Shown here: one piece after another, positions 28,140 through 48,473 of the stretch
How positions within the stretch are numbered: position 1 is the first letter of the stretch
How the letters are laid out: each line of letters starts with the position of its first letter
Notes under the pieces: model-generated
What the model was told of the DNA's origin: nothing
What the model saw: only the letters and a program-made list of their open reading frames with translations
The model's database searches: none
Assembly (NCBI GenBank): GCA_016715465.1
Contig: JADKAA010000027.1
Location: 1,548-65,547, forward strand
Length of the DNA stretch: 64,000 bases
Source: Saprospiraceae bacterium
GTDB taxonomy: Bacteria; Bacteroidota; Bacteroidia; Chitinophagales; Saprospiraceae
Direction of reading: 5' to 3'
Made by a program: the position numbers and the translations under genes

Positions 28140-28787
28140 ATGATAGTTCTGGGTGCCGTTATTACAGCCGATATTGTTAACTCAACAGCCATGGGCAGCA
28201 AAGCTGCCGGAGAGCTTCGTTCCATTCTGGAGCAGCTGATCAATGCCAACCAAGCAAAATTCCTTTCTTTTTACCGGGGCGACAGTTTCCAAAGCTACCT
28301 GGTGGACCCTTACCCGGCTTACAAGCTGGCCCTCCGCCTTCGTACAGCTGCCCGGATTTTCGAAAATCAGCTTCCGGACATAAAGACCGACCTTAAAATT
28401 TCTATTGGCATCGGCAGCATCGAAACACCGGTAACACAGATAAAAACAGCACAGGGGGAAGCATTTCTGCTATCGGGCAGGGGACTGGATGAACTGGAGA
28501 AAACGGGACGCAGGTTAATTATCCGCTGCGGGGATGAAAAGGTAAACACAACACTGGAAACCATCAGCCTGTTTACCGACTACCTCTTTGACGCCTTAAC
28601 TTATAAACAGGCGGAAGTGTTGCAGCATTTGCTGAACAACCGCACTCAAATAGAAACAGCTAAAGTGTTGGATAAATCCCAGTCAACTGTAAACAGGCAT
28701 GTACAGTCGCTTGGGTGGAAACAGATGGAGGAGTTGCTGAGGCTGTATAACCAAAGCATACAACAAACCACCCCCATAAATGGATAA
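28140..28787 (+). CDS. SatD-family protein: nucleotidyl-cyclase-like N-domain plus C-terminal sigma70-r4/LuxR-like HTH
   Basis: VITADIVNSTAM ... FYRGDSFQ resembles the two metal-Asp motifs of class III cyclases. LTYKQAEVLQHLLNNRTQIETAKVLDKSQSTVNRHV is an HTH. Confidence 0.6.
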   Translation: MIVLGAVITADIVNSTAMGSKAAGELRSILEQLINANQAKFLSFYRGDSFQSYLVDPYPAYKLALRLRTAARIFENQLPDIKTDLKISIGIGSIETPVTQIKTAQGEAFLLSGRGLDELEKTGRRLIIRCGDEKVNTTLETISLFTDYLFDALTYKQAEVLQHLLNNRTQIETAKVLDKSQSTVNRHVQSLGWKQMEELLRLYNQSIQQTTPING

Positions 28788-29487
28788 TGCAATCATTTGG
28801 CTCATCCGGCTGCTGGCCGCACATTTAGTTACCGACTTTGTACTGCAACCCACCAGCTGGGTAGAGGCAAGAAGAACAGCCCACCATAAGGCAAAACAAT
28901 TTTGGTATCACATTTTACTTACTGCACTGGTAGCCGGATGGTTCACCTGTTTCGACACCTGGTGGGTGCCGCTGGTAATACTTGTCAGTCATGGCCTCAT
29001 TGACTGGTGGAAGAGTTATCGGGAAAACAACGTATTGTATTTTGCCATTGACCAGCTGCTCCACTTGCTGGTGATATTTATTATATGGTGGGTCAAATTT
29101 CCTGAAGTTATATCCCTGAAACAGGTGTTCCAGGCTTGTATGGTTGATGAAAAAATATGGGTGGTGGGTATTGCATTGGTATTCCTCACAAGCCCTGTCG
29201 GTATTCTTATCGGTATGATTACAAAATCATTCAGAGACCAGATACCAAACCATAATGAACAAAGTTTGGAAAATGCAGGTGCGTGGATAGGTATTTTGGA
29301 AAGGCTGATCATTTTCTTTTTGGTATTGATTAGTCAATACGAAGCCATCGGCTTATTGGTAGCAGCAAAATCTATCATTCGTTTAAAAGAAGGTGAGCAA
29401 AAAATGAGTGAATATGTATTGGTAGGTACGCTTATCAGTATATCCGTAGCCCTGCTTACAGGCTATATTGTTTCAAAGTCTATTTAG
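28780..29487 (+). CDS. DUF3307-like polytopic membrane protein
   Basis: 235 aa with about 6-7 TM spans and conserved-looking AHLVTDFVLQ and SHGLIDWW. Overlaps the SatD-like gene by 8 nt. Confidence 0.55.
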   Translation: MDNAIIWLIRLLAAHLVTDFVLQPTSWVEARRTAHHKAKQFWYHILLTALVAGWFTCFDTWWVPLVILVSHGLIDWWKSYRENNVLYFAIDQLLHLLVIFIIWWVKFPEVISLKQVFQACMVDEKIWVVGIALVFLTSPVGILIGMITKSFRDQIPNHNEQSLENAGAWIGILERLIIFFLVLISQYEAIGLLVAAKSIIRLKEGEQKMSEYVLVGTLISISVALLTGYIVSKSI

Positions 29488-29492
29488 TTATT

Positions 29493-32400: not shown

Positions 32401-34648
32401 AAGATCACTCAGGTCAGGTGGATGGCCAAACGAGAAAGGAAAGAGAAAACAAGTTTAAGAAAACTCCCCCGAGATTCAATTTCTGGTAGCTACTCCTACA
32501 ATGGAGTTAGGCATTGACATTGGTACGCTTTCTTCCGTGTATTTGAGGAATGTTCCTCCAAGTCCAAGCAATTATGCTCAAAGAGCTGGTAGGGCTGGTC
32601 GTAGTGGCCAGGGCTCAATTGTGCAAACTTTTTGTGGTAGCGGTCCGGGAAGAGGAGCACATGATCAATACTATTACAGGCGTCCAGTTGAAATTGTATC
32701 AGGTAAAATTGCAGTACCAAGATTTAATCTCTCCAATGCCTCCTTATTTTCTGCACATATTAACTCTTTGGTTTTACAGGTTATATCAGAAAAAATCTGG
32801 GCACGGCCATCAGAGTTTATTGATTTCAGCGACTTTAATGAATTGCCTGTTATCAACAGTTATCTTGAATCATTGCTAAAGGCAGTTCAGGATAATAAGA
32901 CGAAGATTTTGCAGAACATAAAAGAAGCTTTTGGAAAGGAAATAGAGGATTCTGAAAGACAAATAACATGGAATGAGGTGGAGGAACAGATTGGGGAGTT
33001 TGTTTACAGATTTGACAGGGCTTTTGATAAAATGAGAAGTGATTACCGGGAATCACTAAAAGAAATTCTCGAAATCAATAAAATGAAAATTGATGATAAA
33101 GCCCATGACTTTGTGCTTTCAAGCCGGAGAGAAGCATTAGAAAAAAGGAATGAAAATATTAAAAATGGCAAGGAAGAATTTTATGTGTACAGGTATTTGA
33201 GCCAGGTGGGTTTCTTACCAAATTATGCATTTCCTCAAAAGGTCACTTCCATTAAATTCCTCCACCAAAAGGAAGAGGAAGAGTTGGTACGAGACCAGAA
33301 TATTGCTATCAGGGAGTTTGCTCCTCATAATACACTTTATTTTGGTGGGTTGAAATATGCGGTACAGTATGTAAGTAAAGAAACCGACCCAAATAATGTT
33401 ATTAGTACGGCAGTTTGTCCGGACTGTGAGCATATAGAATTACTCTCCAATTCGAGTCCGTTTCCCACTAATTGTCCTAACTGTGGTACAGTTTGGGAAT
33501 CAAACAGACCCTTCGCTGCATTGAAATTTCCAAGAATGAGAGGAGAAAGAAGAACGAGGATTACCGCCGATGAAGAGGAGAGACTGAAAGGTGGATATAA
33601 GATTATAAACAGCTATAAGCCTACTTCCAAAGCAGTTGTCAAAGAGATAAAGATGAATGGGAAACCCATCTGTAAACTGGCATTTGAAAGGAGTGCTCAG
33701 ATGCGTCATTTAAATATGGGGCAGATGGCAGATTATTCCGAACAACGCATTGGATTCAATCTTGATCCGGTAAATTTCAAATGGGTGCAGTTTTCCAAAC
33801 TGGATGAACACTGCAAAGAGAAGAATCTGAGCAAAGGCCAGATGCGAACAAATGTCTCGCTGCTTACGGAGTCAAAGAATGATGTTATTGTCCTGCAATT
33901 AACAGAGTCCTTTGTTGGTAATGAAGAAATATTTGCCAAAACCCTTTTAAACGCTTTTATACAAAGCCTTTGCACCGTATTGAATCTGGATGATGATGAG
34001 ATCAATGGTTTATACCAGCCCATTCTGGGGCAAAATGGAAAGATGATTATTTATGAGACTTCAGAAGGGGGAACTGGAACGCTGTCTGCAATTGCAAATG
34101 ATATTCATTTATTGAAGAGAATAAGCAATAAGGCATTAGAATTACTGCATTTTGATGCTCAGGGTAATGATGTTGAAGGAGCTTGTTTGAAATCCTGTTA
34201 TTCCTGTATTTGCAATTTCTATAACCAGAGAGACCATAGATTATTTGATAGGAGTACCGTAAAAGATTTCCTGCTTCAGCTCACTGTTACAGATGATATG
34301 TCCTCTACTATTGACGACAATGTTCAATTCGATACGTTTATGCAACATGAACTTTCTACACTGGAGAAAAAAGTTCTGGTTGTGATGAAAGAGATAAAAA
34401 TTAGAATGCCTGAAGAACTGCATAAAATTATCTTTAAAGACGATGACCCCATTGCTGAAGCGGACTTGTTTTACAACCCCAAAATATGTGTATTTATTGA
34501 TGGCCCTGATCATGATAAAGAACATATAAAGCTGGATGATGAAAGAAAAAGGACAAAGTTGAAGAAATTGGGGTATAAAGTAGTGGTGATTCATCATGCC
34601 AACATACAAAAGGGAATTGAACTATTACAAGCATCTATCATAAACTAA
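29493..34648 (+). CDS. fused DEAD/DEAH helicase + DUF1998 (DrmA-DrmB / DruE-like) + C-terminal DUF559/Vsr-like endonuclease domain; 1-nt indel at the C-run 32464-32468
   Basis: [20 protein letters not shown], then across the break ...[21 protein letters not shown] and [10 protein letters not shown]. Zn-ribbon CPDCEH..CPNCG, EGGTGTL and [19 protein letters not shown] are DUF1998 marks. [19 protein letters not shown]...[17 protein letters not shown] is the DUF559-like part. Confidence 0.8.
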
Positions 34649-34674
34649 ATTTGTATTAATTGTAAATAAATTTG
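34646..34674 (+). promoter_or_regulatory. two Bacteroidetes -7-type boxes (TAnnTTTG) in the 41-bp gap upstream of the pAgo gene
   Basis: TAAATTTG occurs at 34646-34653 and 34667-34674. The second is about 16 nt upstream of the TTG start at 34690. Confidence 0.4.
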
Positions 34675-34689
34675 GGAAAACAATAATTT

Positions 34690-36741
34690 TTGCAAACCCT
34701 TCAACTCAATATCATCCCCTTCGCCCCACCGGCCACAACCAAAACCTTTGCGTTTTACAAAGAGTGGTTCCAGGGTGCGTATGCGGTATATATCAGTGAA
34801 GAGCTGTTGCCGGTAGTGCAGCATTTTCACAAACCCGACCCTGCAAAAGCAGAAACACATTGGTTGTACAGCGATTTTCTGCCGCTTCGGGATGGAGGCA
34901 TAGAGTTGGAGATCGACCTAACGGTACACTTGCAGTTTGCGGAACATTATTACCGCTTTTTAATCAGTAATCACTTCCGGGATATCGCACCCATCATGCG
35001 GCGCAATTTTACGCAGGAAGTAGAATTGTGGATGTTCGATACCACACTCAAAGGCAAAGAGTACAACCAATACTACAAGTTTACATTGGCAGTGCAGCAC
35101 AGCATTCATAAAACACCTGAATTGATTATATCCTATGACGGCAATTCAAGAGTACTTAAAAAGAGTATGGCAGAATTGCCGGGCTTAGACACCCTGATTT
35201 ATCGCTGGATGAATTACAAAGGGCTGCTTTACCATTGGGGCGAATCTTTTCCTGACGAAGCATTACGCAACCAGCATGAAGTATTTCCTGTAATCAGCAA
35301 CGAATTAGGAACAGAACTTGAAATCATTTTTCCAAAGTCAGATAGGGATAACCGATACCCAACCTTTTTCAAACTCATTACCGGTTTTTATACCAAGTAC
35401 CTGAACAATGATGATTTCAGGAAAGTGATTCCCCTCTCACCAGATGGCTTTTTAATAAGGAACGAAGGCGAGTTTCATCGCATTGATTCCAATGCCAGTT
35501 TACTGGAATACGGAAATAAAGGAACCGGAATCGATCCGCACAACGACATAAAGGAGTATGGTCCATATAAAACAATTGAGCATCCACATAACGTAAAATT
35601 GTTTTTTGTCTATCAAAAATCTGATGCAGCCATAGTAAAGAATTTAAAAGACTGCTTCGATAATGGCTTCAAAAATGCACAGTCATTAAATGAATATGTA
35701 AAACTTCCTTATACCTATAAAGATGAATGGAGTATTGCATTTGATAGCCTGAATGATGCTGTTAAAACCTGCTATCATGCTTTAGAAAACAGGCAAAAGG
35801 AACATAATGTAAGGTATCTGGTAATTTACCTTAGCCCGGTTTCAAAAGATGATGCTACGCAGGAGGAAAAAAGAATTTATATCCGGTTAAAGGAAATGTT
35901 CTTGTTCTATGGCTACCATTCACAGGTGGTATTCAAAGGCAAGGTCAGCCGGGCGGATTTCAATTTCGCACTGCCAAACATACAAATAGCCATGCTGGCT
36001 AAGCTCGGAGGTGTTCCCTGGCGGCTTAACCGGGAACCTGCAAAGGAGCTCATCGTTGGTATTGGGGCTTCCAAAGTCCGTTTCGCCAAAAGCAAAATGC
36101 TGGGCTCTGCCTTTTGTTTTGACAACGATGGAAAGTTCCGGCATTTCGATTGCTTCCCTGCTGATAATACACAAGCCCTTTCAGTTTCCATCCGGCTCGC
36201 CCTGCTTGATTTCAGAAAGAAAAATCCGGAAGCCAAACGGCTGGTTATTCACTTTTATAAGCTCATGAGCAAAAAGGAACTGAAACCGGTGCTGGATATG
36301 CTCTACGACCTCAAAGTGGATATACCGGTCATTATTTTAACCATCAACAAAACAGTATCAAAAAACATATTAGCCTTTGATATAGCCGCCCCGGACACTA
36401 TGATGCCCTTAACCGGCACCTATGTTCAGATAGCGGAAAGGCAGTATTTGCTGTACAACAACATCCGTTACACAGAAAACTCTTTTGTCAAGAAAACGAA
36501 ATACCAGTTCCCGGTAAAAATTAAGATGACCTCAACCCAACTTGAATTGTTGGATGACCCGGCGCTGGTCGATTTACTGATTGACCAGGTATATCAATTT
36601 AGTCGTATGTACTGGAAATCTGTTGCCCAGCAGAACCTGCCGGTAACCATCCTGTACCCCCAGATGGTGGCCGAGATATTCCCCTTCTTCAAAACCCCGG
36701 TTCTTTCGGATTTTGGGAAGGAGACGTTGTGGTTTTTGTAG
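34690..36741 (+). CDS. prokaryotic Argonaute (pAgo), catalytically inactive, with reduced or absent PAZ (long-B-like)
   Basis: The PIWI C-terminus is QNLPVTILYPQMVAEIFPFF...GKETLWFL. A MID-like YIRLK..SQ..AKLGGVPWRL is present. The slicer positions read GIGAS (36058-36069) and HFYK (36249-36260) instead of GxDx and HRDG. Confidence 0.8.
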   Translation: MQTLQLNIIPFAPPATTKTFAFYKEWFQGAYAVYISEELLPVVQHFHKPDPAKAETHWLYSDFLPLRDGGIELEIDLTVHLQFAEHYYRFLISNHFRDIAPIMRRNFTQEVELWMFDTTLKGKEYNQYYKFTLAVQHSIHKTPELIISYDGNSRVLKKSMAELPGLDTLIYRWMNYKGLLYHWGESFPDEALRNQHEVFPVISNELGTELEIIFPKSDRDNRYPTFFKLITGFYTKYLNNDDFRKVIPLSPDGFLIRNEGEFHRIDSNASLLEYGNKGTGIDPHNDIKEYGPYKTIEHPHNVKLFFVYQKSDAAIVKNLKDCFDNGFKNAQSLNEYVKLPYTYKDEWSIAFDSLNDAVKTCYHALENRQKEHNVRYLVIYLSPVSKDDATQEEKRIYIRLKEMFLFYGYHSQVVFKGKVSRADFNFALPNIQIAMLAKLGGVPWRLNREPAKELIVGIGASKVRFAKSKMLGSAFCFDNDGKFRHFDCFPADNTQALSVSIRLALLDFRKKNPEAKRLVIHFYKLMSKKELKPVLDMLYDLKVDIPVIILTINKTVSKNILAFDIAAPDTMMPLTGTYVQIAERQYLLYNNIRYTENSFVKKTKYQFPVKIKMTSTQLELLDDPALVDLLIDQVYQFSRMYWKSVAQQNLPVTILYPQMVAEIFPFFKTPVLSDFGKETLWFL

Positions 36742-38117
36742 GGATAACTTCGGATAACTGGGTTAATAATAGTTTTGACAAAGTAAAAATAAAGGACATA
36801 GTGTTTATTTCAGGAAATAACATAACCTTCTCTTATCAATCTGATAAGCAAGTACTTAATAGTATTGGTTTTTCACTGGATAAGGCCGACACTTTAGCTA
36901 TTGTTGGTCCCTCTGGGTGCGGAAAATCCACATTATTACGCATTCTCTCAGGATTGTTATCAAGTTCTTCAGGAAATCATTTGACTGGTGACGTGGTAAT
37001 AGACAGCCTTACTTCAAACGAGTATAGGGAAACAGGTAAACTGGCTTTTATGTTTCAGGATGCTACACTTCTGCCTCACCTTTCCGTAAGGCAAAATATA
37101 GGACTGCCATTGAAAATAAAAGGCATTGATGAAAACGGAAAAGTCGAAAGCCTGATTAAGGCAGTTGGTTTGGAAGATGCTGCTGATTATTTGCCCAAAC
37201 AATTATCAGGTGGTATGAGAACAAGGGTGGCTTTGGCAAGGGCTTTTGTAACAGAGCCTGAACTGTTATTACTGGATGAACCATTTTCAGCTTTGGACAT
37301 TGCTTGGAAAAGCAAACTGTACATAGAACTTGAAGAACTCAGAGAACTATATAATACTACCGTAATTATGGTTACTCATGATGTACAGGAAGCCATTTTG
37401 CTTTCCGATAAAATAATTGTACTAAACCGATTTGGACAAATACAACCTCCGGAACATCCTGTTGTGTCCACAATGTCTCATTCAGAACGAGTAAATAACA
37501 TTAGTGGATTTCTGCAACAGGAGCACTACCAAAAACTATTTGTCTCAATTCAGGACATTATCTTAAAAGATGGTAAAAGATTCAACATATCAAAAAAAGA
37601 AGCGCTGCATCTTATTGATAATATCATCCGGATAGCAGGAGACGAAAGAAACGAAAAGTCTTTATCTAAAAACGAATTGGATGCAATAAGAGATTTTTCA
37701 AATGATGTTGAAATAAACGCAAAACTGTTAACTGCCTTTGCTAAAGCGGAAACAGACTACCTCAAATACCAGCTTATTTGGGATATTCTTGAATTTGACG
37801 CACTGCCTGGGTCAGTACATGATGAAATATTTGCTTACTATTTTAAAAATATTGAAACTTTCTCCGAATACTCAAGACAATGGTATGCTCTGCATGACGA
37901 TGAAAGATTTTTTAATATTCTTAAAGGAAGAATTGAAAGCAATAAAGGATATAACTCAAAAAAGAAATGGATTTATTTGTGTGACTTGTATGCAGTAAAG
38001 AAATTACCTGAATTAAGTTCCTTTCTTGAAGATGTAATTGAAGCCAAAATAGAACAGTTAAATTATCCATTTGCTAAAGAGGTCGCAAAACAGGTTAAAG
38101 CAAAAATTAAAGAATGA
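36729..38117 (+). CDS. ABC transporter ATP-binding protein (NitT/TauT-type) with a ~210-aa uncharacterised C-terminal extension
   Basis: GPSGCGKSTL, LSGGMRTRVALARAF and LLLLDEPFSALD. The start is either the GTG at 36729 (overlapping the pAgo stop) or the GTG at 36801, which gives more typical spacing to Walker A. Confidence 0.8.
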   Translation: MVFVGITSDNWVNNSFDKVKIKDIVFISGNNITFSYQSDKQVLNSIGFSLDKADTLAIVGPSGCGKSTLLRILSGLLSSSSGNHLTGDVVIDSLTSNEYRETGKLAFMFQDATLLPHLSVRQNIGLPLKIKGIDENGKVESLIKAVGLEDAADYLPKQLSGGMRTRVALARAFVTEPELLLLDEPFSALDIAWKSKLYIELEELRELYNTTVIMVTHDVQEAILLSDKIIVLNRFGQIQPPEHPVVSTMSHSERVNNISGFLQQEHYQKLFVSIQDIILKDGKRFNISKKEALHLIDNIIRIAGDERNEKSLSKNELDAIRDFSNDVEINAKLLTAFAKAETDYLKYQLIWDILEFDALPGSVHDEIFAYYFKNIETFSEYSRQWYALHDDERFFNILKGRIESNKGYNSKKKWIYLCDLYAVKKLPELSSFLEDVIEAKIEQLNYPFAKEVAKQVKAKIKE

Positions 38118-38854
38118 AGAATAAGATACTTTACATACTGCTTGGTGTCCTGTTGTTGGTTGCATGGCAATATTTTGGAAGCACCAGCCAAACGGTGAGG
38201 CTGTTGCTTTCTTCTCCATCGTTAGTAGCAAACTATTTTGGAGAGAATTATACTGCACTGTTACAGGCATTGCAAGCTACTTTTATTGAAGCTGTTGCTG
38301 GTTTATTGATAGCAATTATTTTCAGTTTTGGAACCATGATACTTTGTTTTCATTTTCCGAAGTTGATGGATTTTGTATTACCCATTATGATAACATCACA
38401 GGTAATACCATTGATTGTGTTAGCACCTTTTTTTATTATTCTTTTTGGCATTGGCCTGAGTTCTAAAGTTGCGATGGCGGCCCTAATGTGTTTCTTTCCA
38501 ATCTTTGTAAATTTTGCTCAGGGTTACAAGGCTATCAACCAAAACATCCATGAACTTATGCACATTTACAATGCGGGTACATGGACAAGAATACGACAAG
38601 TGTATTTCCCTCTTTCTATGCCCAGCATAATGGCAGGTTTGAAAATAAGTGCAACGCTGGCAGTGATTGGGGCAATTGTGGCGGAGTTTAACGGAGCAAA
38701 AGTTGGGTTAGGAAAAAACTTATACTTAGCTGCAAAACGATTGGAACCTGATATGATGATGAGTTCTTTGTTGCTTTCGGCATTACTTGGCGGTGTGGTC
38801 TATCTCTGTATAAGTATCATAGAAAATAAATTAGGTAAATGGTACAAGGCGTAA
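38114..38854 (+). CDS. ABC transporter permease (binding-protein-dependent inner-membrane component)
   Basis: 246 aa with about 6 TM spans and an EAA-like loop (YNAGTWTRIRQVYFPLSMPSIMAGLK). ATGA overlap with the ATPase gene. Confidence 0.75.
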   Translation: MKNKILYILLGVLLLVAWQYFGSTSQTVRLLLSSPSLVANYFGENYTALLQALQATFIEAVAGLLIAIIFSFGTMILCFHFPKLMDFVLPIMITSQVIPLIVLAPFFIILFGIGLSSKVAMAALMCFFPIFVNFAQGYKAINQNIHELMHIYNAGTWTRIRQVYFPLSMPSIMAGLKISATLAVIGAIVAEFNGAKVGLGKNLYLAAKRLEPDMMMSSLLLSALLGGVVYLCISIIENKLGKWYKA

Positions 38855-39543
38855 ATACATATTGGACAAAAGAAGCTGGTGATTTTCATAAAATTGATAA
38901 TGTAGAAAGGGATATTCTATTGCCTTATGTGGCTCAGATAATTAATGATTTAAATCCGAAAAAACTACTTGATTATGGTTGCGGCAGTGGTTATTTGGCT
39001 TGGCTGATTAAAAGGAATACTGAAATTTCATTGTACGACATTAATCCTCAGGTAATAGATGAATATCAACAATGGAATATCACTAACGTTGTGATTCCCG
39101 TAAAAGACAAAAGCCAGATAAGGGACAATTATTACGATGTAGTAGTGCAGACATCTGTATTAATGTGTGTTCCTGTAATTGAGGGAATAAGAGAGATTTT
39201 TAAAGACAATTATACGGCATTGAAGTCAGGCGGGAGCCTCGTAGTTGTCATTACACACCCTTGTTTTCTGCAATATCATTTCGGGCACTATTATACATCT
39301 CTCAATCAAGACAACTTTAATTACTTGGAGAACACAACGAAGTATCAGGTGTATATGAAACAGCCTGATAAAAACCCTATTGTATTCACTGACTATAACT
39401 GGAACTTATCAACTATAATAAATGAAATTATCAAGGCAGGATTTTCACTAACTAAAATGGTTGAGCATCCTGATTTAAAATCAAAATATTTTGAACCTAA
39501 TAACCTTGTATCGCCTTGGTTATTTTTAATCGCTAAGAAGTAA
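38839..39543 (+). CDS. class I SAM-dependent methyltransferase
   Basis: LLDYGCGSGYLAWL (motif I), DVVVQTSVLMCV, GGSLVVVITHP. Confidence 0.7.
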   Translation: MVQGVNTYWTKEAGDFHKIDNVERDILLPYVAQIINDLNPKKLLDYGCGSGYLAWLIKRNTEISLYDINPQVIDEYQQWNITNVVIPVKDKSQIRDNYYDVVVQTSVLMCVPVIEGIREIFKDNYTALKSGGSLVVVITHPCFLQYHFGHYYTSLNQDNFNYLENTTKYQVYMKQPDKNPIVFTDYNWNLSTIINEIIKAGFSLTKMVEHPDLKSKYFEPNNLVSPWLFLIAKK

Positions 39544-40249
39544 ATGAGTTTTAAAGACACATATTGGAGCACAGAGGAAGTAGAACGGCTGTATAAAGCG
39601 GAAAATCCCGAACAGGCTATAATACAACCTATCATAGCCAAACAGGTTGTGGAGTTGAACCCTGCACATATACTTGATTATGGCTGCGGTGATGCTTATA
39701 TGGCTAAAATTTTACCAGACAACATCAACATTGATTTATACGACAGAAACCAACAATCTTTAGAAAAGTATTTCAAACACTTAATAAGCCAAACTGTAAA
39801 AGATTGTATGATGAAAGTGATTTTCAAAATGATTTTTACGACTGCATAGTTTTAAGTTTTGTATTGTGTGTGTGGATAGTTTGGAAGACCAATACAGAAT
39901 TTTAAGAAAACTTAAAACCGCTTTAAAAAAATCTTCGGGAAGGTTGATTATTACCAATTCTCATCCTTGCTTCTTACAGTATGAGTTTACCGCTTTTAAA
40001 ACAAATCTAAGTCCTGAAAATTTCAATTATTTCAATAACGGAATTCCGTATGAAGTTTCTATAAAACAACCCAACGGAAACCCTGATGTAACCTTTACAG
40101 ATTACCAATGGCAATTATCCGTTTGGATAAATATGGCTATTGAGTGTGGCTTTGCATTGCAGGAAATGATAGAAGTTACCGACCAACCTTACAAAGATTT
40201 AAATGAAAACAAATTATATCCACCATTTTTAATACTAAAATTCAAATGA
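39544..40249 (+). CDS. class I SAM-dependent methyltransferase, tandem paralogue of the previous gene; frameshifted around 39780-39870
   Basis: ILDYGCGDAYMA in ORF 39544-39849. SGRLIITNSHPCFLQYEF...TFTDYQWQL in ORF 39866-40249 parallels ITHPCFLQYHF...VFTDYNWNL of the paralogue. Confidence 0.65.
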
Positions 40250-40250
40250 T

Positions 40251-41225
40251 ATGAAACGACTGATCATACTTCTTCCGTTCATTTTAGCTCTTCTGGTTGG
40301 TTGCGACAACCACAGGCGAGGAGATATTCAAAAAGTAAATCTTCGCCAGGAATGGTTTGCCAATGCGAGTTATTTGGGGGAAGTGGTCGCCATTAATGAA
40401 ACAGATTCGTTGAACGGATTGGATATTAACCTAATTGAAGGGGCCGACGATGTTGACCCGATTAAAATGGTGATTTCGGGTAATGATAAATTTGGTGTAT
40501 GTGGGGCCGACAGGGTTTTTACTGCAAATGAAAACGGGGCTGATTTGGTCGTGATTGGTGTAGTGAACTATATAAACCCAACAGTCTTTATAGCTAAGGA
40601 AAATTTAAATGTTCGTATGCCTAAAGATTTTGAAGGTAAAAAGGTTGGTGTATTTACTGGTAATAATACCGAAATGATATACCGTACATTGGTGAGAAAG
40701 GCAGGCTTGAACAAAAACAAAATAACAGAAGTGGAAGCACCTTTTGATTTGGGTTCTTTCATAGCAGGTGCTTATGATATAAGACCAGCTTACATTTTTG
40801 ATGAAACAGTTTCTTTAGATAAAGAAGGAATCAAATACACAGTTGTAAAACCACAGGATTACGGAGTTTCATTTATTGGAACTGTATATTTTACTAAACG
40901 AAGTACAATTGAGAAAGAACCTGACCTGGTACAGGAATTTATTAATTCAATAGCACAAGGTTGGAAGATCGCATTGAATAATCCTGAAAAAGCACTCAGC
41001 TACTTAGCAGCCTACAATAAGACCATTGACATAAACAGGGAAAGGGCGTCATTTAAAGCAGGGATTGATTATTTCAGGGGTGAAAATGGCAAAGTGCTGA
41101 CATCTGACATTCAGAAATGGAAACAAATGGGTAGCGACTTAAAAGATTTAGGTGTTATCAAAGCCTTTGATGCGGATAAGTTTATTAATAGCACTTTTAT
41201 TAATAAATATCACGACAAAAATTAG
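40251..41225 (+). CDS. ABC transporter substrate-binding lipoprotein (NMT1/THI5-like)
   Basis: 324 aa with a lipobox (ILALLVGCDN) and overall SsuA/NMT1-like architecture. Confidence 0.65.
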   Translation: MKRLIILLPFILALLVGCDNHRRGDIQKVNLRQEWFANASYLGEVVAINETDSLNGLDINLIEGADDVDPIKMVISGNDKFGVCGADRVFTANENGADLVVIGVVNYINPTVFIAKENLNVRMPKDFEGKKVGVFTGNNTEMIYRTLVRKAGLNKNKITEVEAPFDLGSFIAGAYDIRPAYIFDETVSLDKEGIKYTVVKPQDYGVSFIGTVYFTKRSTIEKEPDLVQEFINSIAQGWKIALNNPEKALSYLAAYNKTIDINRERASFKAGIDYFRGENGKVLTSDIQKWKQMGSDLKDLGVIKAFDADKFINSTFINKYHDKN

Positions 41226-41227
41226 TT

Positions 41228-42787
41228 ATGACCCAAGAAGACGAACAAATACTGAAGCAGATTAATAGTATCTGGCGAAAAACGGATGCTTTTTTGGTAA
41301 ACCATGACAATAGTTTGCTGTTGTTTGATTTTACAACTGTATCGCATTTTGAAAATAGTGATGAGAAAAGAATCAAATCCATCTATCAGTACAAAATAAG
41401 AAATTACAAGAATTTATTATTAGAATATTTTGAGGAATATGGATACTCGATTCCCCAAAATGCTTCTGGCAATAAGCCATCTATTTATAATGTAAAAGAG
41501 TATTCCGAACCTCTTGTATTAAGTGCTCCGATTCCTGATATCTATCCTGAAACTGTAAATCAAAAGAAAGAAGTGCCACTAGATACCTGGGAGGCCTTTG
41601 TCGAGAATAAAAAGATTGCAGGGGCCTCATGGATATTATTCAAGGATTTTTATAGTAATGAAGAAACAAAAGAACGCATAGAAGTTGGAGTATATATTCT
41701 TTTGCACAAACCTGTTGCATTATGGGATGAAGATAAATCTCAACAAGAGGATGAAATTAACAAGTTTATACACTTTGAAGTTATACAATTTTTATATGAC
41801 AATAGTATCGCTTATATGTCAAAACAGTATGTGAAGGAAAAGTTCGAAAAAAAACAACTCAATCGTGAAAAGATGCTTTATGTTGGCATGGGGCACTACA
41901 TAAAAAATAGTACGCTTGGATTAGAAGCACACGAAAATGAAATTATACAGTATTTGAAATCGCTAACAAATACAGATACTAAAATTCTTGTAACCGCTCA
42001 ATTACAGAAGCTTATTTATAGTTTAATCCGGCTTTATCTTCAAATACGGCAGATTGCAGGTTCGGGTGTTATTGACGTAAAGGTTATACAAACAAAAGTT
42101 CAGGTTAATTTGTATAATTTAATTAATCTAATTTACCTCCATATCATTATTACAAGGGGAAAATTTTATATATCCTTGGATAACCCCAATAATCTTGATT
42201 CTATAAAAAACATAGTTACACATCAAAATGAAATAATCGGAAAACTGACTGAGTTATTGCAAAATCAAACGTTTGAGCAAGCGGATATTGATGCTGTCTT
42301 ATCAAAAAATGATGAGATTGATTCATTTCATTCGTTAGCAAAAAGCGGATACGAAATACTCATAAAAATTGACCCGATCTTGAAAATGAAAGTAGAGTTA
42401 AACAGCATTCAATTCAAATATTTATATACAGTATTTGCAGAAATATTCGATAACTGTTTTAGTAACAAACATTCTCCGGGTTCAAGAACTGCATATTTGT
42501 ATTTTGGAAATGATTATCAGGATTACAATACAATTACAGTCAGTTCCAGGGATTCTTCCATAGATATGGATAATTTATTCAAATTTGAAGATAGTGAATT
42601 ATGTAGCGATTGTGCTTCAACAGGAAACGGAGTTAAGATTGTACAATCTGCATTGGACAACGAATATTTGAAATCTAAGTTATTGATTCCAAAGGACTCT
42701 AAATCTAAATCATTCACAATGTCCAATGGGGGAGAAATAAGTGTATTTGAGTATCGAGTTAAACTGAACAAAAATCTTTTTATATGA
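41228..42787 (+). CDS. soluble histidine-kinase-like protein (H-box plus GHKL ATPase)
   Basis: 519 aa with no TM span. The candidate H-box is GMGHYIKNSTLGLE (His codon 41894-41896). The N-box-like motif is FAEIFDNCFSNK and the G-box-like motif is STGNGVKIVQSAL. Confidence 0.6.
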   Translation: MTQEDEQILKQINSIWRKTDAFLVNHDNSLLLFDFTTVSHFENSDEKRIKSIYQYKIRNYKNLLLEYFEEYGYSIPQNASGNKPSIYNVKEYSEPLVLSAPIPDIYPETVNQKKEVPLDTWEAFVENKKIAGASWILFKDFYSNEETKERIEVGVYILLHKPVALWDEDKSQQEDEINKFIHFEVIQFLYDNSIAYMSKQYVKEKFEKKQLNREKMLYVGMGHYIKNSTLGLEAHENEIIQYLKSLTNTDTKILVTAQLQKLIYSLIRLYLQIRQIAGSGVIDVKVIQTKVQVNLYNLINLIYLHIIITRGKFYISLDNPNNLDSIKNIVTHQNEIIGKLTELLQNQTFEQADIDAVLSKNDEIDSFHSLAKSGYEILIKIDPILKMKVELNSIQFKYLYTVFAEIFDNCFSNKHSPGSRTAYLYFGNDYQDYNTITVSSRDSSIDMDNLFKFEDSELCSDCASTGNGVKIVQSALDNEYLKSKLLIPKDSKSKSFTMSNGGEISVFEYRVKLNKNLFI

Positions 42788-43998
42788 AGCGCTTTGAAAT
42801 CGCAATTATAGATGACCAGGGCCTTGATACCGGGTTTGGCAGATTCTTGGCATTGTTGTATAAGAATCAATACTTGTCATCTAATGATTTTGCATTGGTG
42901 CAAAAAAAAGATTATACAGATGGATTGGGAAAAAATATGATACAAAACTCAATTGCTTTTCAGATATACACCCATAATTACGGTAATCAGGGTTTTAAAA
43001 AATGTTTTTGTGAAGCATTTAGTGACTTTGATAGTAGAAAAGATCAATTTGATATTTATATTTTTGACCTCAATTTTATTGAGCAGGACAATAACTCATT
43101 TTATCCGTTACATTCCAAAAATCAATGCGACACAAGTAAGAAATTTAAGAAAGGATTGACCTTAGATAAGGTGAATGACTCAGACAAATCAACCTTAATT
43201 GCGGGGCTTGAATTTTATCATTGTTTAAAGCCCTCATTTAAGCCTAAAATAATTTATTCGGCAGCACAAGAAACGGCAGTACTTCGTAGCTCAGTCAAAC
43301 TGTTTAATTCAAGGCTCTACGATACATTTATAGTAGATGTTACCGCCCCGGCAGAAGTAAGAAATGATAGCAATGACCCTTTCGAGAATATGGGAGATGT
43401 GTCAAGGACATTTGATGCTATAGATATCTACTTTCAATCCCGTCAAATAGCCATTATCAACAGCCAATTATTAGACAAAGTACAATTGTTAAGCAAAATT
43501 GTTAAAGAGTGGAATGGAAAAGTGGAAAATGCAGATGAACCTTTAATACCTGATAACGGAACCGACTCTAATCCTGCAAATTGTTGGAGTTTAAGAACGT
43601 TGTTTCCAAAGCAGGTAAACAGGATTGAGTTGGGGATTGATGTGGAGGAGAATACAACTAAAATATTGGAAACGATAGGCAACTTGAATTTCCCTTCTAT
43701 TTACAAATTCTTAGTTCATGACCATGGAAATTTAAACGGTATGGAATATGAAAATGTAAAAAATGAACCAATCGTTATAAATAGATTTCCTGCAATACTT
43801 GATTTGGAGTTTAATACTACCGAAAAAGTAACATATGAAAAATTTAGTGAGATTGTCCCTAATCAATCAGCCTATAGTCATAAGACTATAAGAAGGAAGA
43901 TTTATGATATTAATTTTGATGTTCAGAATCAAACAGTTTACAAAGAGTCAAACGGAACTCTTGAGGAAAAAAAACCTCTAGAATTGTTACTGGATTAA
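42784..43998 (+). CDS. receiver (REC)-domain protein with an unknown C-terminal region
   Basis: IAIIDDQG (acidic pair), IYIFDLNF (Asp codon 43066-43068) and KIIYSAAQ. ATGA overlap with the kinase gene. The stop sits just after the A-run 43967-43974. Confidence 0.55.
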   Translation: MKRFEIAIIDDQGLDTGFGRFLALLYKNQYLSSNDFALVQKKDYTDGLGKNMIQNSIAFQIYTHNYGNQGFKKCFCEAFSDFDSRKDQFDIYIFDLNFIEQDNNSFYPLHSKNQCDTSKKFKKGLTLDKVNDSDKSTLIAGLEFYHCLKPSFKPKIIYSAAQETAVLRSSVKLFNSRLYDTFIVDVTAPAEVRNDSNDPFENMGDVSRTFDAIDIYFQSRQIAIINSQLLDKVQLLSKIVKEWNGKVENADEPLIPDNGTDSNPANCWSLRTLFPKQVNRIELGIDVEENTTKILETIGNLNFPSIYKFLVHDHGNLNGMEYENVKNEPIVINRFPAILDLEFNTTEKVTYEKFSEIVPNQSAYSHKTIRRKIYDINFDVQNQTVYKESNGTLEEKKPLELLLD

Positions 43999-44033: not shown

Positions 44034-44501
44034 ATGGCTGAGTATGGTTTCTATCTCGGAGATTTAAAGCTTATCTACTTAATAATTGATTCTAACTCAA
44101 AATATAATTTTAGTGATACCTATAAAGAGGCTAAGAAAACGAATGGCGAAGAGCTGCCAAAGCCCAAACTAACAATTTCCTATTTCTCTCAAGAGGTAAT
44201 AGTAAATATTAGTTACGATTCTGATAATGAATATTACACGCAATCTAATTTGCATATTAATCCTATTTATGAAGGAATTAAAAAGTTATTGCAAAACAGA
44301 CAAGATTGGAAGATAATCGACCAATTAGGCCCCACCCAAATATTTAAAATCCTGGCGTACCGCTATAACACAGAATTCGAAGTTAGAGTAGGGAAATTAT
44401 CTTTTTCTGCTGGTCGTTTCGGGATTACTGATATTCAAACTAATGATGATGGAGACAAAACTTATTTTCAATTCAAATTACCGACTCTAATAAAATCTTA
44501 A
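44034..44501 (+). CDS. hypothetical protein, possibly the C-terminal part of the preceding gene
   Basis: The reading frame stays open upstream of the ATG, back to the A-run 43967-43974. The end, DDGDKTYFQFKLP, weakly resembles the last strand of GHKL ATPases. Confidence 0.4.
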   Translation: MAEYGFYLGDLKLIYLIIDSNSKYNFSDTYKEAKKTNGEELPKPKLTISYFSQEVIVNISYDSDNEYYTQSNLHINPIYEGIKKLLQNRQDWKIIDQLGPTQIFKILAYRYNTEFEVRVGKLSFSAGRFGITDIQTNDDGDKTYFQFKLPTLIKS

Positions 44502-44513
44502 AAGGAGAATAAT

Positions 44514-45047
44514 ATGAATTACATAGTAATTGACTCAGTCGACACTCGGGCAAATAAATTAATTCAAAGATTAAATAATACTGCTGTAAAATGGCAATAT
44601 ATTGATTTTCTGTCTGAGAATGACAAACCTGATAATAATACGCTGTATTTGATTCATCACAGTGATGGGTATGTAGGAGAATTTGCCATGAAAATAAATT
44701 CATTGGAAAATGCTTTTGTGCTATTTTATTCAGGAGGCGGGCTTTCAGCAGATGAACTGAAAGCACAAGGAGATAAGATATTTTTTTATGCTGGCGGATT
44801 AAATTCTGGTGTAGATGAAAAAGCTATAAATATAATAAATGAAATTGTTTCAGTCATAAGCAAAGAAGACAACGTAACAAAAGTCATTGTACAAATAAAG
44901 AAAGTGCTTGGTTTTGATGAGCAACTCGAAAAATTACTTGAACCCTTCGCAACAGCAAATCCATTTAAAACGGAAAGCTCAAATGGAGAAAACTTAAAAC
45001 AAGCCAAAGAAGCATTGAACAAATACATTAATAGCAAGGCATTATGA
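44514..45047 (+). CDS. stand-alone pseudo-receiver-like protein
   Basis: 177 aa. LYLIHHSDGY ... VLFYSGGG parallels the N-terminal domains of the next two proteins (VYVIDVHCVF..VVFYSPIS and VYLINAHLNW..FIFYSPIQ). Confidence 0.45.
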   Translation: MNYIVIDSVDTRANKLIQRLNNTAVKWQYIDFLSENDKPDNNTLYLIHHSDGYVGEFAMKINSLENAFVLFYSGGGLSADELKAQGDKIFFYAGGLNSGVDEKAINIINEIVSVISKEDNVTKVIVQIKKVLGFDEQLEKLLEPFATANPFKTESSNGENLKQAKEALNKYINSKAL

Positions 45048-46957
45048 ATAAGGTATTTATATCAAATACAAAAGTTCAGAATACTGAAACAGATATTGTT
45101 TTCTGTCCAACCAATCGCCTTAGCGAGAAGTTGGAAGCTGTTGATACATCTGGCAAAACTGTATATGTTATAGATGTTCATTGTGTTTTTACAAATAATA
45201 AAAAGCAACTAAAATTACAAGACCAGGGCGGTGTAACAATCTACCGCCAATTACTGCAAAAATTCGATGGTAATCAGGATAAACTAAAAGTAGTTTTCTA
45301 CTCACCAATCTCTCAGGAGGATTTAGTAAAACTAAAGCCCGAAAACTATGTGCTAAGTTTGTTACCGTTGGTGGAATGTAAATATGAAGAAGGCCAGTTT
45401 GAAAGTGAGCTTGCCAGAATTATTTCTGACAATAAATTTCCGCTGTTTAATAACGCTTCAGAGAATTTGTTAAGTGGATGGGCGTTATTTAGAGCAGACA
45501 ATAACAGAAAGGAAAATGACTTTGTCGAAACACAATACAAACATAAAACCCCCACAGATAAGCCAAGGGTAATAACTTTTATAGACGATGAAATCAATGA
45601 GTGGAGAGAAACCTATTCCAAAATATTTGAGCAAGGGAAAAATATAAGATTGATAATGTACCAAAAAGAGAAACATCCATTTTGGGAATTTAGTGAGGAA
45701 AAAATTGACAATCTTAAAAATCATGTGATGCAGTCGGCTCTGATTGTTTCAGATTTCTATTTGCAGGAAAATCATGCTCCAAATACATGGTTGAGCAATA
45801 AGCAACTTGAAGATAAAAGCGGTTTTAAATTATTTAATGCAATTAAAGGTGGCGGCTACAAAGATGGTATTCATAAAGGTGTTCCATATATTATGTACAC
45901 ATCAAGCAATAAAATCCAGTATTATCAGTATTTGGATGCACATGGCATTGATAATTGGTTGGTAAAAGATGTTCGACCTAATGCTACTGCTTTTGAAAAG
46001 AAAGATGGCTTTTATACATTTAAAAAGGTTATTGAGGAGTTTACTCATCAGGAAAGCTCTCACTTGTATGCCATACTCAAGTTGTATTGGGAACGGATAC
46101 AAAAGCTGGAGGCTCGAATTAAGGAAATGGATTATGATAGGATTTCAAACTGGTGGTATTCTCTATCGGGGCAAAATGAAGAAGATAGGGAGGAAATTCA
46201 AGTGAAATCTAGCTGGGAAAAGTGTAAAAAAGCAAGTAGTGAAAATGTTGATGAAGTTATCGGATTGCTAAAAGATTCATGGATGGCTATTCGTGCAAAC
46301 ATGAACCGGGAAACTGTTTTTGCCGAAAGTGTAGGAAGCATGGATAGGCATTTTACCGCAGCATCAGTATGTTCAAATTTAGGTAAGCTATTTGAGTTTT
46401 TCAATTTCACTCAAGGCATGAAATTGAATACTTACTTTAAGTTCCTCTTTTGCATAAGAAACATTGGAAGCCATTATAAGCAATATAAAAGCATAGAATT
46501 GGAGGATGCACTAATTTATTTTGACTGTTGGCTAACTGTCTTAGAAAAGAAGGAAGTGAGAGTATTTGAAGCTTTCAAGCCCCTATTAAATGTAGAAGAG
46601 TTTATCTTTCAAGGGAAAACGCTCAATACCAGTGATACCTTTGTATATGCACTATTGTATGGGTACATTCAATTTATAAATGGGTTTCATCTAAAAGAAA
46701 GCAGCCTGGCAAATGTCCTGATTAAGAAAAGGGTATCAGAAATACTATTTAATGCAGATAAAAAAATACTTGCTGCTGAATTAGAAACGGATTTCTTTGG
46801 AGAATTTGGAAATAAAATATTTTTAAAAAAGCATAGAAACAACAGAACTAATTCGCCAAATGCCAATAGAATTGTGAGCAACTGGAAGTCTGGCGGAACT
46901 AACTATGGAATAATTATCGAACAAGATGGAAGAATGTACATTACAAATAATGCCTAA
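45044..46957 (+). CDS. dual receiver-like protein with a C-terminal HEPN-like (Rx4H) helical domain
   Basis: REC2 has ITFIDDEINEW, ALIVSDFYL (Asp 45752-45754) and YIMYTSS. The C-terminal FLFCIRNIGSHYKQY gives R 46457-46459 and H 46472-46474. Confidence 0.55.
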   Translation: MNKVFISNTKVQNTETDIVFCPTNRLSEKLEAVDTSGKTVYVIDVHCVFTNNKKQLKLQDQGGVTIYRQLLQKFDGNQDKLKVVFYSPISQEDLVKLKPENYVLSLLPLVECKYEEGQFESELARIISDNKFPLFNNASENLLSGWALFRADNNRKENDFVETQYKHKTPTDKPRVITFIDDEINEWRETYSKIFEQGKNIRLIMYQKEKHPFWEFSEEKIDNLKNHVMQSALIVSDFYLQENHAPNTWLSNKQLEDKSGFKLFNAIKGGGYKDGIHKGVPYIMYTSSNKIQYYQYLDAHGIDNWLVKDVRPNATAFEKKDGFYTFKKVIEEFTHQESSHLYAILKLYWERIQKLEARIKEMDYDRISNWWYSLSGQNEEDREEIQVKSSWEKCKKASSENVDEVIGLLKDSWMAIRANMNRETVFAESVGSMDRHFTAASVCSNLGKLFEFFNFTQGMKLNTYFKFLFCIRNIGSHYKQYKSIELEDALIYFDCWLTVLEKKEVRVFEAFKPLLNVEEFIFQGKTLNTSDTFVYALLYGYIQFINGFHLKESSLANVLIKKRVSEILFNADKKILAAELETDFFGEFGNKIFLKKHRNNRTNSPNANRIVSNWKSGGTNYGIIIEQDGRMYITNNA

Positions 46958-48473
46958 AATATATTACCATATCTGTAACCCTTCCACACCTGAGCAACCA
47001 GGTATTAAAAACGTATATTCTTTAAAGGATTTACAAAAGGTGAAAGAGGATGCCACTACTGTTTACCTGATTAATGCTCATTTGAATTGGGAGGGAAGAA
47101 GATTGAGTGGTAATTACGGGTTTGATATTTCCAATGAATTGAGAGCAAAGTTAAAATCCAAAGCCCCTTTTATTTTTTATAGCCCAATACAAGTAAAATA
47201 CTTTGAGCAAGAGAGTAAAAATGACATTAGGTATAAAATTCTTTTTGGTAGCGGGTCAGCATTTATAAATTTTCCGTTTACATACCAGGAGCTGAGGGAT
47301 ATTTCTGAAAAATTAAAGCCATTAAGTAATGCAGGCTTGCATGACGTAGTTACCATGTTATGTAATGTAAAAGGATTGATAATTGACAAGCTCAATCATA
47401 ATTTAAAATGGGGAGTTGATAGCGAAAAAATAATTGCTCAAATCAAGCCCTACCTTTCCATTGAACAGCAAAGAACAATTGATTTTGATGTCTTTTCAAA
47501 TGCTCTCAGCAAAGCATCAGGGAAACAAGATTTTGATGCTGTAGTACAAAACTGGGTAGAGGTATGTACTTCACGTCTCACAGAGGATGTACAGAACTAT
47601 TCATATACTACTAACTTCCCGTACAAAGTATTATTGGTTGATGATGTTCAGGAGTATTTGGACAAAGCAAAGCAGTATTTGTCAAGCGACTTTGATATTC
47701 TTACGACCAAGTCTTGTGAAGAGGCTATACAAATATTAGCTAAAGATGGTGATAATAAAATTCTGGCAGTAATTGCCGATTGGCGCTTATATGATACTAC
47801 AAATCCGGATTATTGGCAAGCTATGCAGGGTTATGAAGTGCTTGCTTTTGCAGCTAGGAATGGTATACGCAGTTTAATAGCCCTGACATCCCAGTCTGAA
47901 TATATTGTACATAGACTGCGGGAACTCCTTGGTATTTGGTTTTCTTTGTATAAGAAACAACACTTAGAGAAGCAGGAGCAATGGCAGTTATTTTCTAATA
48001 TGCTTGCCGATGCCTGCCTGCGTACAAATGAAGCTATACTTAACAGGCCAACTGCAACAAACTGGACATCTAATAGAAGAAAGGACATCGTTAGTGAATT
48101 TTCTCCAAAAGAGATTTATGCAATTTTTAGGAGTAATGGAAAACTGTCCGAAATAGAAGATAAAGCAGATATTATCTGGCAGTCCTATTTAGATAAACAT
48201 CAAATTCGCTACCGGCTAAACGAGTTAAGCACTACTTATATTACGTTTGATACAACGGAAGAAATGCTGGTTCAACGAAGAATTTTCCTTGGCTTGTATC
48301 ATAGCGAATTTTCAATAGACGACATTTGCTGTGAAATGTCAAAGGACCCTAAAAAAGGACCCGGTAAAAACGACATAACCCAATTGAAAAGTAAACTCTG
48401 CATTAAGAACGAAGATTTAACCGGCGGTAAGATTTTAATTGAAGAAACAGCCTGGCTCAAAAATGGGGTTTAA
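46950..48473 (+). CDS. dual receiver-like protein, paralogue of the previous gene, with an unknown C-terminal domain
   Basis: The canonical REC has KVLLVDDVQEYL, LAVIADWRLYD (Asp 47778-47780) and LIALTSQS. The start is taken at the ATG at 46950, which overlaps the upstream stop by 8 nt. The ORF is open from 46926. Confidence 0.55.
   Translation: MPKIYYHICNPSTPEQPGIKNVYSLKDLQKVKEDATTVYLINAHLNWEGRRLSGNYGFDISNELRAKLKSKAPFIFYSPIQVKYFEQESKNDIRYKILFGSGSAFINFPFTYQELRDISEKLKPLSNAGLHDVVTMLCNVKGLIIDKLNHNLKWGVDSEKIIAQIKPYLSIEQQRTIDFDVFSNALSKASGKQDFDAVVQNWVEVCTSRLTEDVQNYSYTTNFPYKVLLVDDVQEYLDKAKQYLSSDFDILTTKSCEEAIQILAKDGDNKILAVIADWRLYDTTNPDYWQAMQGYEVLAFAARNGIRSLIALTSQSEYIVHRLRELLGIWFSLYKKQHLEKQEQWQLFSNMLADACLRTNEAILNRPTATNWTSNRRKDIVSEFSPKEIYAIFRSNGKLSEIEDKADIIWQSYLDKHQIRYRLNELSTTYITFDTTEEMLVQRRIFLGLYHSEFSIDDICCEMSKDPKKGPGKNDITQLKSKLCIKNEDLTGGKILIEETAWLKNGV

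Follow-up and report, generated by a model that had tools for sequence, protein, structure and literature searches.

A 64,000-nt stretch of contig JADKAA010000027.1 (assembly GCA_016715465.1) from a Saprospiraceae bacterium, here called the window and used for all plain coordinates, carries a gene for an inactive prokaryotic Argonaute (pAgo), which is followed by genes for an ATP-binding cassette (ABC) ATPase, a permease, two paralogous S-adenosylmethionine (SAM) methyltransferases (MT1 and MT2), and an NMT1-type substrate-binding lipoprotein. With moderate confidence, these five genes can be regarded not as an accessory of the pAgo but as the putative input part of a cassette that is autonomous, moves horizontally, and came to lie behind the 3′ end of the pAgo gene; the cassette as a whole is proposed to import, methylate, and sense a small molecule. 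Domains were assigned by Pfam and NCBIfam scans on the open reading frame (ORF) listing, motifs were checked across 20 ATPase homologues, and the cassette was compared among about 19 related loci and the pAgo clade among about 22 loci of species representatives, the related loci being numbered L001, L049, and so on. An earlier sequence-only reading had proposed the same gene content, together with an extra C-terminal domain of ~210 aa on the ATPase (the tail), and both were confirmed.

The left boundary of the cassette is seen in the comparison with L015, a locus of a Ferruginibacter metagenome-assembled genome, whose pAgo and helicase are 94% and 95% identical to those of the window and which is collinear with positions 28705-36741 at 87.6% nucleotide identity. 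The homology ends exactly at the pAgo stop codon, after which L015 carries a Vut_1 transporter and other genes and no cassette. The GC content of the pAgo gene is 42.8%, equal to the genome mean, compared to 35.6% for the importer/methyltransferase block, which lies in the lowest 3% of 4.5-kb genome windows, and 33.7% for the kinase/receiver block, which lies in the lowest 0.6% of genome windows. The A+T-rich composition and, as a fallback, a separately acquired cassette had both been suggested by the sequence-only reading, and the latter is supported by the end of the L015 homology as well as by the absence of a pAgo from ~15 of the ~19 cassettes.

The cassette extends over ~11.7 kb, from 36743 to at least 48473. 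Its order of ATPase, permease, one or two methyltransferases, and binding protein is conserved in all ten homologues of the tail for which context is available, and also in L012, L049, and L128. A large kinase-like protein and receiver proteins then follow in all copies whose sequence extends far enough; in the window, the string runs unbroken into these genes from 41228 onward, as had been noticed before. The family is extremely rare, with 2-4 occurrences in 185,579 species genomes and nine metagenome loci. The upstream neighbours vary and include AbiE, Dcm/Vsr, a deaminase, type I or III restriction-modification (R-M), a PD-(D/E)XK protein, and plasmid Rep/ParA. The settings comprise AbiE, R-M, DruE, pAgo, deaminase, and plasmid loci. 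Homologous blocks found without pAgo or the kinase genes in ordinary metabolic contexts had been named beforehand as an observation that would speak against a special association. Copies without pAgo do exist, whereas neither a copy without the kinase/receiver genes nor an ordinary metabolic context was encountered among the copies examined, and the five-gene block therefore co-occurs with the kinase/receiver block in all sufficiently long copies and with pAgo in some of them.

The genes of the cassette are inherited as a mosaic, as shown by trees and identity matrices. The ATPase and permease of the window are nearest to those of L001 (79% and 83% identity, respectively), while MT1, MT2, and the binding protein are nearest to those of L049 (85%, 94%, and 90%) and L010 (61%, 71%, and 78%). 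Likewise, L003 and L004 share 89-93% identity in the ATPase and permease and 51% in the binding protein, and their methyltransferase sets differ. The N-terminal ~240 aa of the kinase-like protein form a swappable, putative sensor domain that falls into four groups: the window with L010 and L049; L001, L005, and L006, which have a SLOG/LOG domain; L004 with L007; and L002 with L008. These groups coincide with the nearest-neighbour groups of the binding protein and with the methyltransferase types, and they differ from the ATPase groups. Because the methyltransferases, binding protein, and kinase N-terminus co-vary independently of the ATPase and permease, the three components are, as judged from these sequence comparisons, a single recognition cartridge on a conserved translocator.

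A conserved site between the pAgo and ATPase genes also belongs to the cassette. The sequence-only reading had begun the block at 36729 and had described it as starting at, or just after, the pAgo stop codon and as wired directly behind the pAgo. A GTG start at 36729 is unsupported; the GTG at 36801 is common to the called product and to all 20 homologues, so that a 59-nt spacer lies behind the pAgo stop, containing a candidate operator and a candidate −7 box (Table 1), and direct wiring in the sense of a shared stop codon is not supported. The candidate operator is a tandem hexamer. Of 16 close cassettes, 14 have it at a distance of 35-58 nt ahead of the ATPase gene, as two copies of either GATAAY or (A/C)CTAAC, with a background of four matches in ~1.5 Mb of unrelated loci and two exact copies in the 5.31-Mb genome. 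The −7 box candidate fits TAnnTTTG, the −7 promoter consensus of Bacteroidetes. The same layout of operator, 11 nt, and TAnnTTTG is present in L001, L009 (twice), L049, and L128, and in a relaxed form in L002, and the position of both elements is fixed with or without a pAgo upstream. A second cassette clade has (A/C)CTAAC-N4-ACTAAC at −36, and in these copies the site occurs again ~35 nt before distal genes for receiver-ATPase proteins of 250 and 906 aa. The half-sites vary jointly and the variant tracks the architecture of the downstream receivers, as would be expected from a cassette-encoded dimeric regulator. The tandem hexamer is thus a candidate operator for a dimer of the response-regulator type, and a regulator acting on it could control the cassette's own promoter. 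The conserved site is a new object that can be tested. No Rfam element, including riboswitches, was detected in the 28-50 kb region.

The importer genes correspond to a type I ABC importer of the NitT/TauT family in all three components (Table 1). The ATPase motifs are intact, with Walker A GPSGCGKST, signature LSGGM, LLLDEP, and the H-loop, and they are invariant in the 20 homologues. As in SsuABC, TauABC, and ThiXYZ (TC 3.A.1.16/17), a single ATPase is combined with a BPD_transp_1 permease and an NMT1-type binding protein. However, none of the named subfamilies SsuABC, TauABC, ThiXYZ, and SaoABP can be assigned, every score being far below the equivalog cutoff: for the permease, the best NCBIfam matches are SaoP (89 vs 295), SsuC (65 vs 347), and TauC, and for the binding protein the SsuA family (44 vs 163). 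The name SaoABP was rejected for the permease on the same ground, the model being derived from a selenoprotein/organometallic locus. The nearest solved structures of the binding protein are 4NMY and ThiY (3IX1), at E values of about 1e-15, and no thi or ssu gene is found among the neighbours. In contrast to ordinary NitT/TauT importers, the cassette has an all-alpha ATPase tail of 210 aa without a known fold and obligatory methyltransferase genes within the operon, and it lacks thi/ssu genes and a riboswitch. Its permease, the most conserved cassette protein (63-93% identity among cassettes), forms a clade set off by a gap: in a metagenome scan with a permease profile, nine loci showed at least 41% identity, compared to at most 35% for ordinary members. 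None of 70 such ordinary loci carries methyltransferases, the cassette kinase, or pAgo. The junctions between the five genes had been described as ATGA overlaps or gaps of 0-2 nt; this is correct for the 4-nt ATGA overlap of ATPase and permease and for the later gaps of 0, 1, and 2 nt, whereas the permease and MT1 overlap by 16 nt.

The two methyltransferases are indeed tandem paralogues with 39% identity, as first proposed, but only one of them is an intact gene. MT1 shows the class I SAM motif and matches the Pfam families Methyltransf_12/23/11/25 at E values of 1e-8 to 2e-6; its orthologues in L049 and L010 are 85% and 61% identical, and its nearest solved structures are 3G5L (E 6e-7) and ToxA (8RDL, E 3e-6). 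MT2 has the corresponding motif LDYGCGDA, and its frame is twice broken. It is spread over three frames: compared to the intact orthologues in L049 (97.5% nucleotide identity) and L010, the A5 run at 39763-39767 is one A short, and a G is missing at ~39865. These single-nucleotide deletions may represent fresh decay or an assembly error. In addition, MT2 lies in a ~0.8-kb tract (about 39450-40250) that is 95-99% identical to L049 at the nucleotide level, with flanks at ~80%; because this tract covers exactly MT2, a very recent recombination of a single gene is indicated. Across the cassettes, at least three unrelated families are used in the methyltransferase slot. Stand-alone members of family A, to which MT1 belongs, are found in L050, L052, and L053 with unrelated neighbours that give no functional hint, and family B shows similarity only to generic natural-product methyltransferases.

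In the downstream half, the kinase-like protein is a single polypeptide of 844-1223 aa in other cassettes and is divided into two pieces in the window and in L009. The family consensus contains an H-box-like SHNIGAHV and an N-box-like ILENIIRNxAKH. Response_reg matches mark the counterparts of the receiver proteins in L001-L009, and HATPase_c is matched weakly, in L010 only (E 0.008); the six downstream proteins of the window have no Pfam match. In L001, L005, and L006 the kinase carries the SLOG/LOG domain as a fusion, and a free LOG protein is encoded in L134 (E 4e-36). For the N-terminal domain of the window kinase, no PDB match was obtained, and its interpretation as a diverged SLOG domain was rejected at an hhalign probability of 0.1%. 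This half is reminiscent of Detocs, which consists of three genes, for the kinase DtcA, the receiver DtcB, and the receiver-effector DtcC (bioRxiv 10.1101/2023.01.24.525353). Both are set in defence islands, and in both a soluble protein of the kinase type precedes proteins that consist of a receiver only or of a receiver with an effector. Unlike the cassette, Detocs has no importer, methyltransferase, or binding protein, and the cassette kinase is far more divergent. The likeness is architectural only; PADLOC gave no match for the six downstream proteins.

The tail of the ATPase was modelled by AlphaFold2 (AF2) as ~12 helices, with a predicted local distance difference test (pLDDT) score of 83-88. 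Its identification by profile or fold search, which had been recommended with the earlier claim, yielded nothing significant: sequence and profile searches in Pfam and PDB gave no match, and the best Foldseek hit against PDB had an E value of 0.07 and a TM score below 0.33, the hits being mostly designed or HEAT-like repeats. It is also not a TOBE domain of the MalK/ModC type or a C2/ACT-type regulatory domain of MetN, since it is all-alpha and not beta-rich. The ATPase with the extra domain is represented by 20 clusters in 5.8e9 proteins. An exhaustive profile search for the domain itself returned 120 representative clusters in 1.84e9 proteins, comprising ~30 C-terminal fusions to ATPases and ~55 free proteins of ~205 aa. 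The ATPases of L134 and L135, two distant cassettes, are tail-less, and a free homologue of the tail (hhalign probability 97%, E 1e-10) is encoded among the downstream signalling genes. These are higher-GC variants (15270-16493 in L134 and 9215-9841 in L135) in which a free LOG-family protein (Lysine_decarbox, E 4e-36) stands beside the free tail homologue. Because the tail is fused in some copies and free beside signalling genes in others, it probably contacts a signalling component. It represents a new family of helical domains, found both attached to ABC ATPases and as a stand-alone protein. Two large proteins with an N-terminal tail domain, P0091 and P0145, were considered as relatives of the cassette kinase and rejected (hhalign probability 0.1%).

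The following order of events is proposed for the cassette. On the outer side of the inner membrane, the lipoprotein would bind a small molecule, probably a heterocycle, and the permease/ATPase pair would take it in. One or two cytoplasmic SAM methyltransferases would then alter the imported molecule. The kinase-like protein, which is soluble, would sense the imported or methylated compound with its variable N-terminal domain and would then drive the receiver-domain proteins. The helical tail could serve as a docking domain that links the state of the transporter to a signalling partner. Because the kinase-like protein, the ATPase, and MT1 have no hydrophobic segment, the signal must enter the cell or pass via the ATPase. 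A nucleobase-type ligand is hinted at by the ThiY-like binding protein, the ToxA-like methyltransferase, and the LOG/SLOG domains, each of which is a weak hint.

Several observations weigh against the autonomous, importing and sensing cassette as just described. Comparison of the binding protein and methyltransferases with solved proteins yielded family-level similarity only and named no ligand. The assignment of the kinase depends on motifs and the one weak HATPase_c match, and a PDB profile search was empty. No DNA-binding or helix-turn-helix domain was found in the cassette proteins, the small ones resembling degenerate receivers. The tail is wholly missing from the L049 ATPase and is therefore dispensable in at least one copy. 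Moreover, no terminator-like site was found between the pAgo and ATPase genes, so that read-through could couple the pAgo to the cassette. Finally, the recurrent adjacency to pAgo exceeds chance, and a purely autonomous model leaves it unexplained.

The last two points lead to the possibility that the inactive pAgo and the cassette are functional partners in a co-transcribed defence operon, in which the cassette would either receive a signal of target recognition from the pAgo or provide or control something that the pAgo requires. Inactive long pAgos depend on neighbouring effectors, and the described partners of long-B pAgos are a nuclease, Sir2, and transmembrane (TM) proteins (PMC10620215). 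The window pAgo carries GIGAS and HFYK substitutions. Immediately 5′ of the cassette, the window, L004 (46% identical), and L049 (38%) each have a full-length inactive pAgo, and L012 retains a 25-aa stub of a pAgo tail, giving 4 of ~19 cassettes, which is far above chance for any single upstream neighbour and is not obligatory. These pAgos are 38-47% identical to one another and their cassettes belong to different clades and are not nearest relatives; the window and L049 nevertheless share an identical junction, in which the stop codon TAG is followed by GGATAAY, though the pAgos are otherwise very diverged. On the other hand, the pAgo-less majority shows no significant remnant of a pAgo tail, with only the word TGGTTTTT in L001 (p about 0.09), none of the ~22 pAgo-clade loci has the cassette, and the closest pAgo relative, that of L015, lacks it. 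Behind the pAgos of this clade lie widely differing genes, some of them with housekeeping roles, including AraC regulators, a superfamily 1 (SF1) helicase with a PIN nuclease, and sugar-binding proteins, which is not the consistent co-occurrence in one operon that marks a long-B pAgo effector module. The discordant GC content and the candidate operator and promoter kept behind the pAgo are also difficult to reconcile with a partnership. BPAN, BPAS, and BPAM resemble the present arrangement in that an inactive long pAgo is closely trailed by co-directional genes, whereas the partners there are single proteins (PMC10620215) and here a ~12-gene unit with its own putative promoter is mostly without pAgo. 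That an ABC/methyltransferase set is no described pAgo partner, as originally stated, holds for this source, which mentions neither ABC, transporter, nor methyltransferase, and we found no description in the literature of such a set with a kinase, either with pAgo or in defence islands. The adjacency can also be explained by a recombination seam: an orphan pAgo 3′ end at 54939-55072 matches the pAgo tails of L015-L017 at 72-82% nucleotide identity and, with the live tail at 36741, brackets ~18 kb. This body-less tail fits the pAgo 3′ end as a seam for swapping downstream DNA. Insertion of the cassette at such a seam is probably the cause of the adjacency, and a functional link between pAgo and cassette appears unlikely. 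The window would thus provide a concrete case of gene sets exchanged at pAgo 3′ ends and a caution that a gene behind a pAgo is not automatically its partner.

It is likewise improbable that the cassette is an ordinary salvage or detoxification operon on mobile DNA, combining uptake of a pyrimidine, a thiamine-precursor-like, or a sulfonate-like compound with methylation and its own two-component regulation. All parts do come from nutrient-type families (NitT/TauT, NMT1/ThiY-like, and TehB/UbiG-like methyltransferases), the stand-alone relatives of the family-A methyltransferase occur in unremarkable contexts, and transporter operons are often accompanied by a two-component regulator of their own. 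However, no equivalog cutoff is reached, no Rfam element is present, and the genome has neither a second copy nor linked pathway genes. The extreme rarity of the family, its invariable defence or mobile contexts, and the high rate at which its recognition parts are shuffled are also unexpected for a salvage operon, as are outputs that consist of large receiver-ATPase or receiver-unknown proteins instead of DNA-binding regulators. Alternatively, the transporter could act as a co-sensor in the manner of Bce or Pst-PhoU-PhoR, the kinase reading the transport cycle via the ATPase tail and the methyltransferases acting on a protein or another cell component. Precedents exist in MalK-MalT, PstB-PhoU-PhoR, and BceAB-BceS, and the soluble nature of the kinase-like protein, as well as the "Rosetta stone" pattern of the cassette-specific tail, fused or free beside signalling genes, would agree with it. 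In PstSCAB-PhoU-PhoR, BceAB-BceRS, and MalK-MalT, as in the cassette, an ABC transporter is linked to a signalling protein at the genetic and probably also at the physical level, and an extra ATPase domain is a candidate contact surface. In contrast to these systems, the cassette kinase has no membrane segment and a modifying enzyme is built into the cassette; the regulatory tails of MalK, ModC, and MetN are beta-rich and of the TOBE/ACT type, whereas that of the cassette is a helical repeat. The methyltransferases, moreover, track the binding protein and the N-terminus of the kinase and not the ATPase, which points to one small ligand common to them. L049 has no tail, and the interchange of two unrelated methyltransferase families is more readily imagined for a step that acts on a small molecule. 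We therefore give the co-sensor arrangement a low probability as well.

For the imported-ligand cassette, a defence role is suggested by the genomic context. An extended form would be a new type of conflict or defence system that is directed at cues from outside the cell: the importer would take in a nucleobase-like cue, for example from lysed kin or phage-modified DNA, the methyltransferases would convert it, and the kinase with its swappable sensor would arm receiver-fused effectors, the inactive pAgos of one Bacteroidota clade having repeatedly recruited the cassette via the 3′ seam. This form is speculative, and we regard it as possible rather than likely. If the reading as an importing and sensing cassette holds, it would represent an undescribed input logic for defence-island systems, in which a periplasmic binding protein and importer feed a cytoplasmic phosphorelay and in which the binding protein, methyltransferases, and kinase sensor domain are exchanged as one cartridge.

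Table 1. Features of the cassette and its left boundary, in window coordinates.
Feature	Position	Strand	Basis or remark
pAgo stop codon TAG, left breakpoint of the cassette	36739..36741	+	Collinearity with L015 ends; junction TAG/GGATAAY also in L049
Tandem hexamer GATAAC-N4-GATAAC, period 10 (GATAACTTCGGATAAC), candidate operator	36743..36758	+	2 nt after the pAgo stop
−7 box candidate TAGTTTTG	36770..36777	+	Fits TAnnTTTG; 11 nt after the hexamers, 23 nt before the GTG
ABC ATPase, whole gene	36801-38117	+	PF00005, E 7e-32
ABC ATPase, nucleotide-binding domain, GTG start	36801..37475	+	PF00005; start from homologue N-termini
ABC ATPase, C-terminal all-alpha domain with motifs KYxLxWDILE, ILKGRIE, KKWIYxCD	37476..38117	+	AF2 model
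Permease, BPD_transp_1	38114-38854	+	PF00528, E 2e-24; ~6 hydrophobic segments
MT1, class I SAM methyltransferase, family A	38839-39543	+	Motifs LDYGCGSG, THPCF, FTDYNW
MT2, paralogue of MT1, frame broken	39544-40249	+	Comparison with intact L049 and L010 orthologues
NMT1/ThiY-like substrate-binding lipoprotein	40251-41225	+	PF09084, E 1e-42; lipobox LLVGC
Kinase-like region, two ORFs (519 and 404 aa)	41228..43998	+	Match a single 844-1223-aa protein of other cassettes
Four further cassette genes (155, 177, 637, and 515 aa), receiver-type output half	44034..48473	+	Gene order of the homologues conserved in L009 and L049

Some further observations were made on the control site and on the surroundings of the pAgo. 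L009 has two tandem operator/−7-box units before its ATPase gene and an extra upstream gene of 329 aa (1352-2341) with its own hexamer site (1286-1301). L135 shows a different tandem repeat before the ATPase gene, TCAGTTAC TG TCAGTTCA. The second exact GATAAC-N4-GATAAC of the genome is located at 32849-32864 on the minus strand, inside a DruE-like helicase gene, where L015 has three mismatches; the two exact pairs thus flank the pAgo and are inverted to each other. No extended repeats were found around this second site or around the block. The DruE-like helicase-nuclease itself is divided into two ORFs (998 and 715 aa) by one missing T at 32460-32475, where the window reads CTCC-CCCG and L015 CTCCTCCCG; in L015 the helicase is intact, as one ORF of 1733 aa. 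Single-base frameshifts occur in several window genes, and the indel quality of the assembly is uncertain; the assembly consists of two large and thirty small contigs, and the window spans nearly the whole of its 65.8-kb contig. In L020, L021, L022, and L026, the pAgo is followed within 15-35 nt by an SF1 (AAA_11/AAA_12) helicase of 1168-1294 aa and a PIN protein of 615-717 aa, which looks like a likelier true partner set for this pAgo clade.

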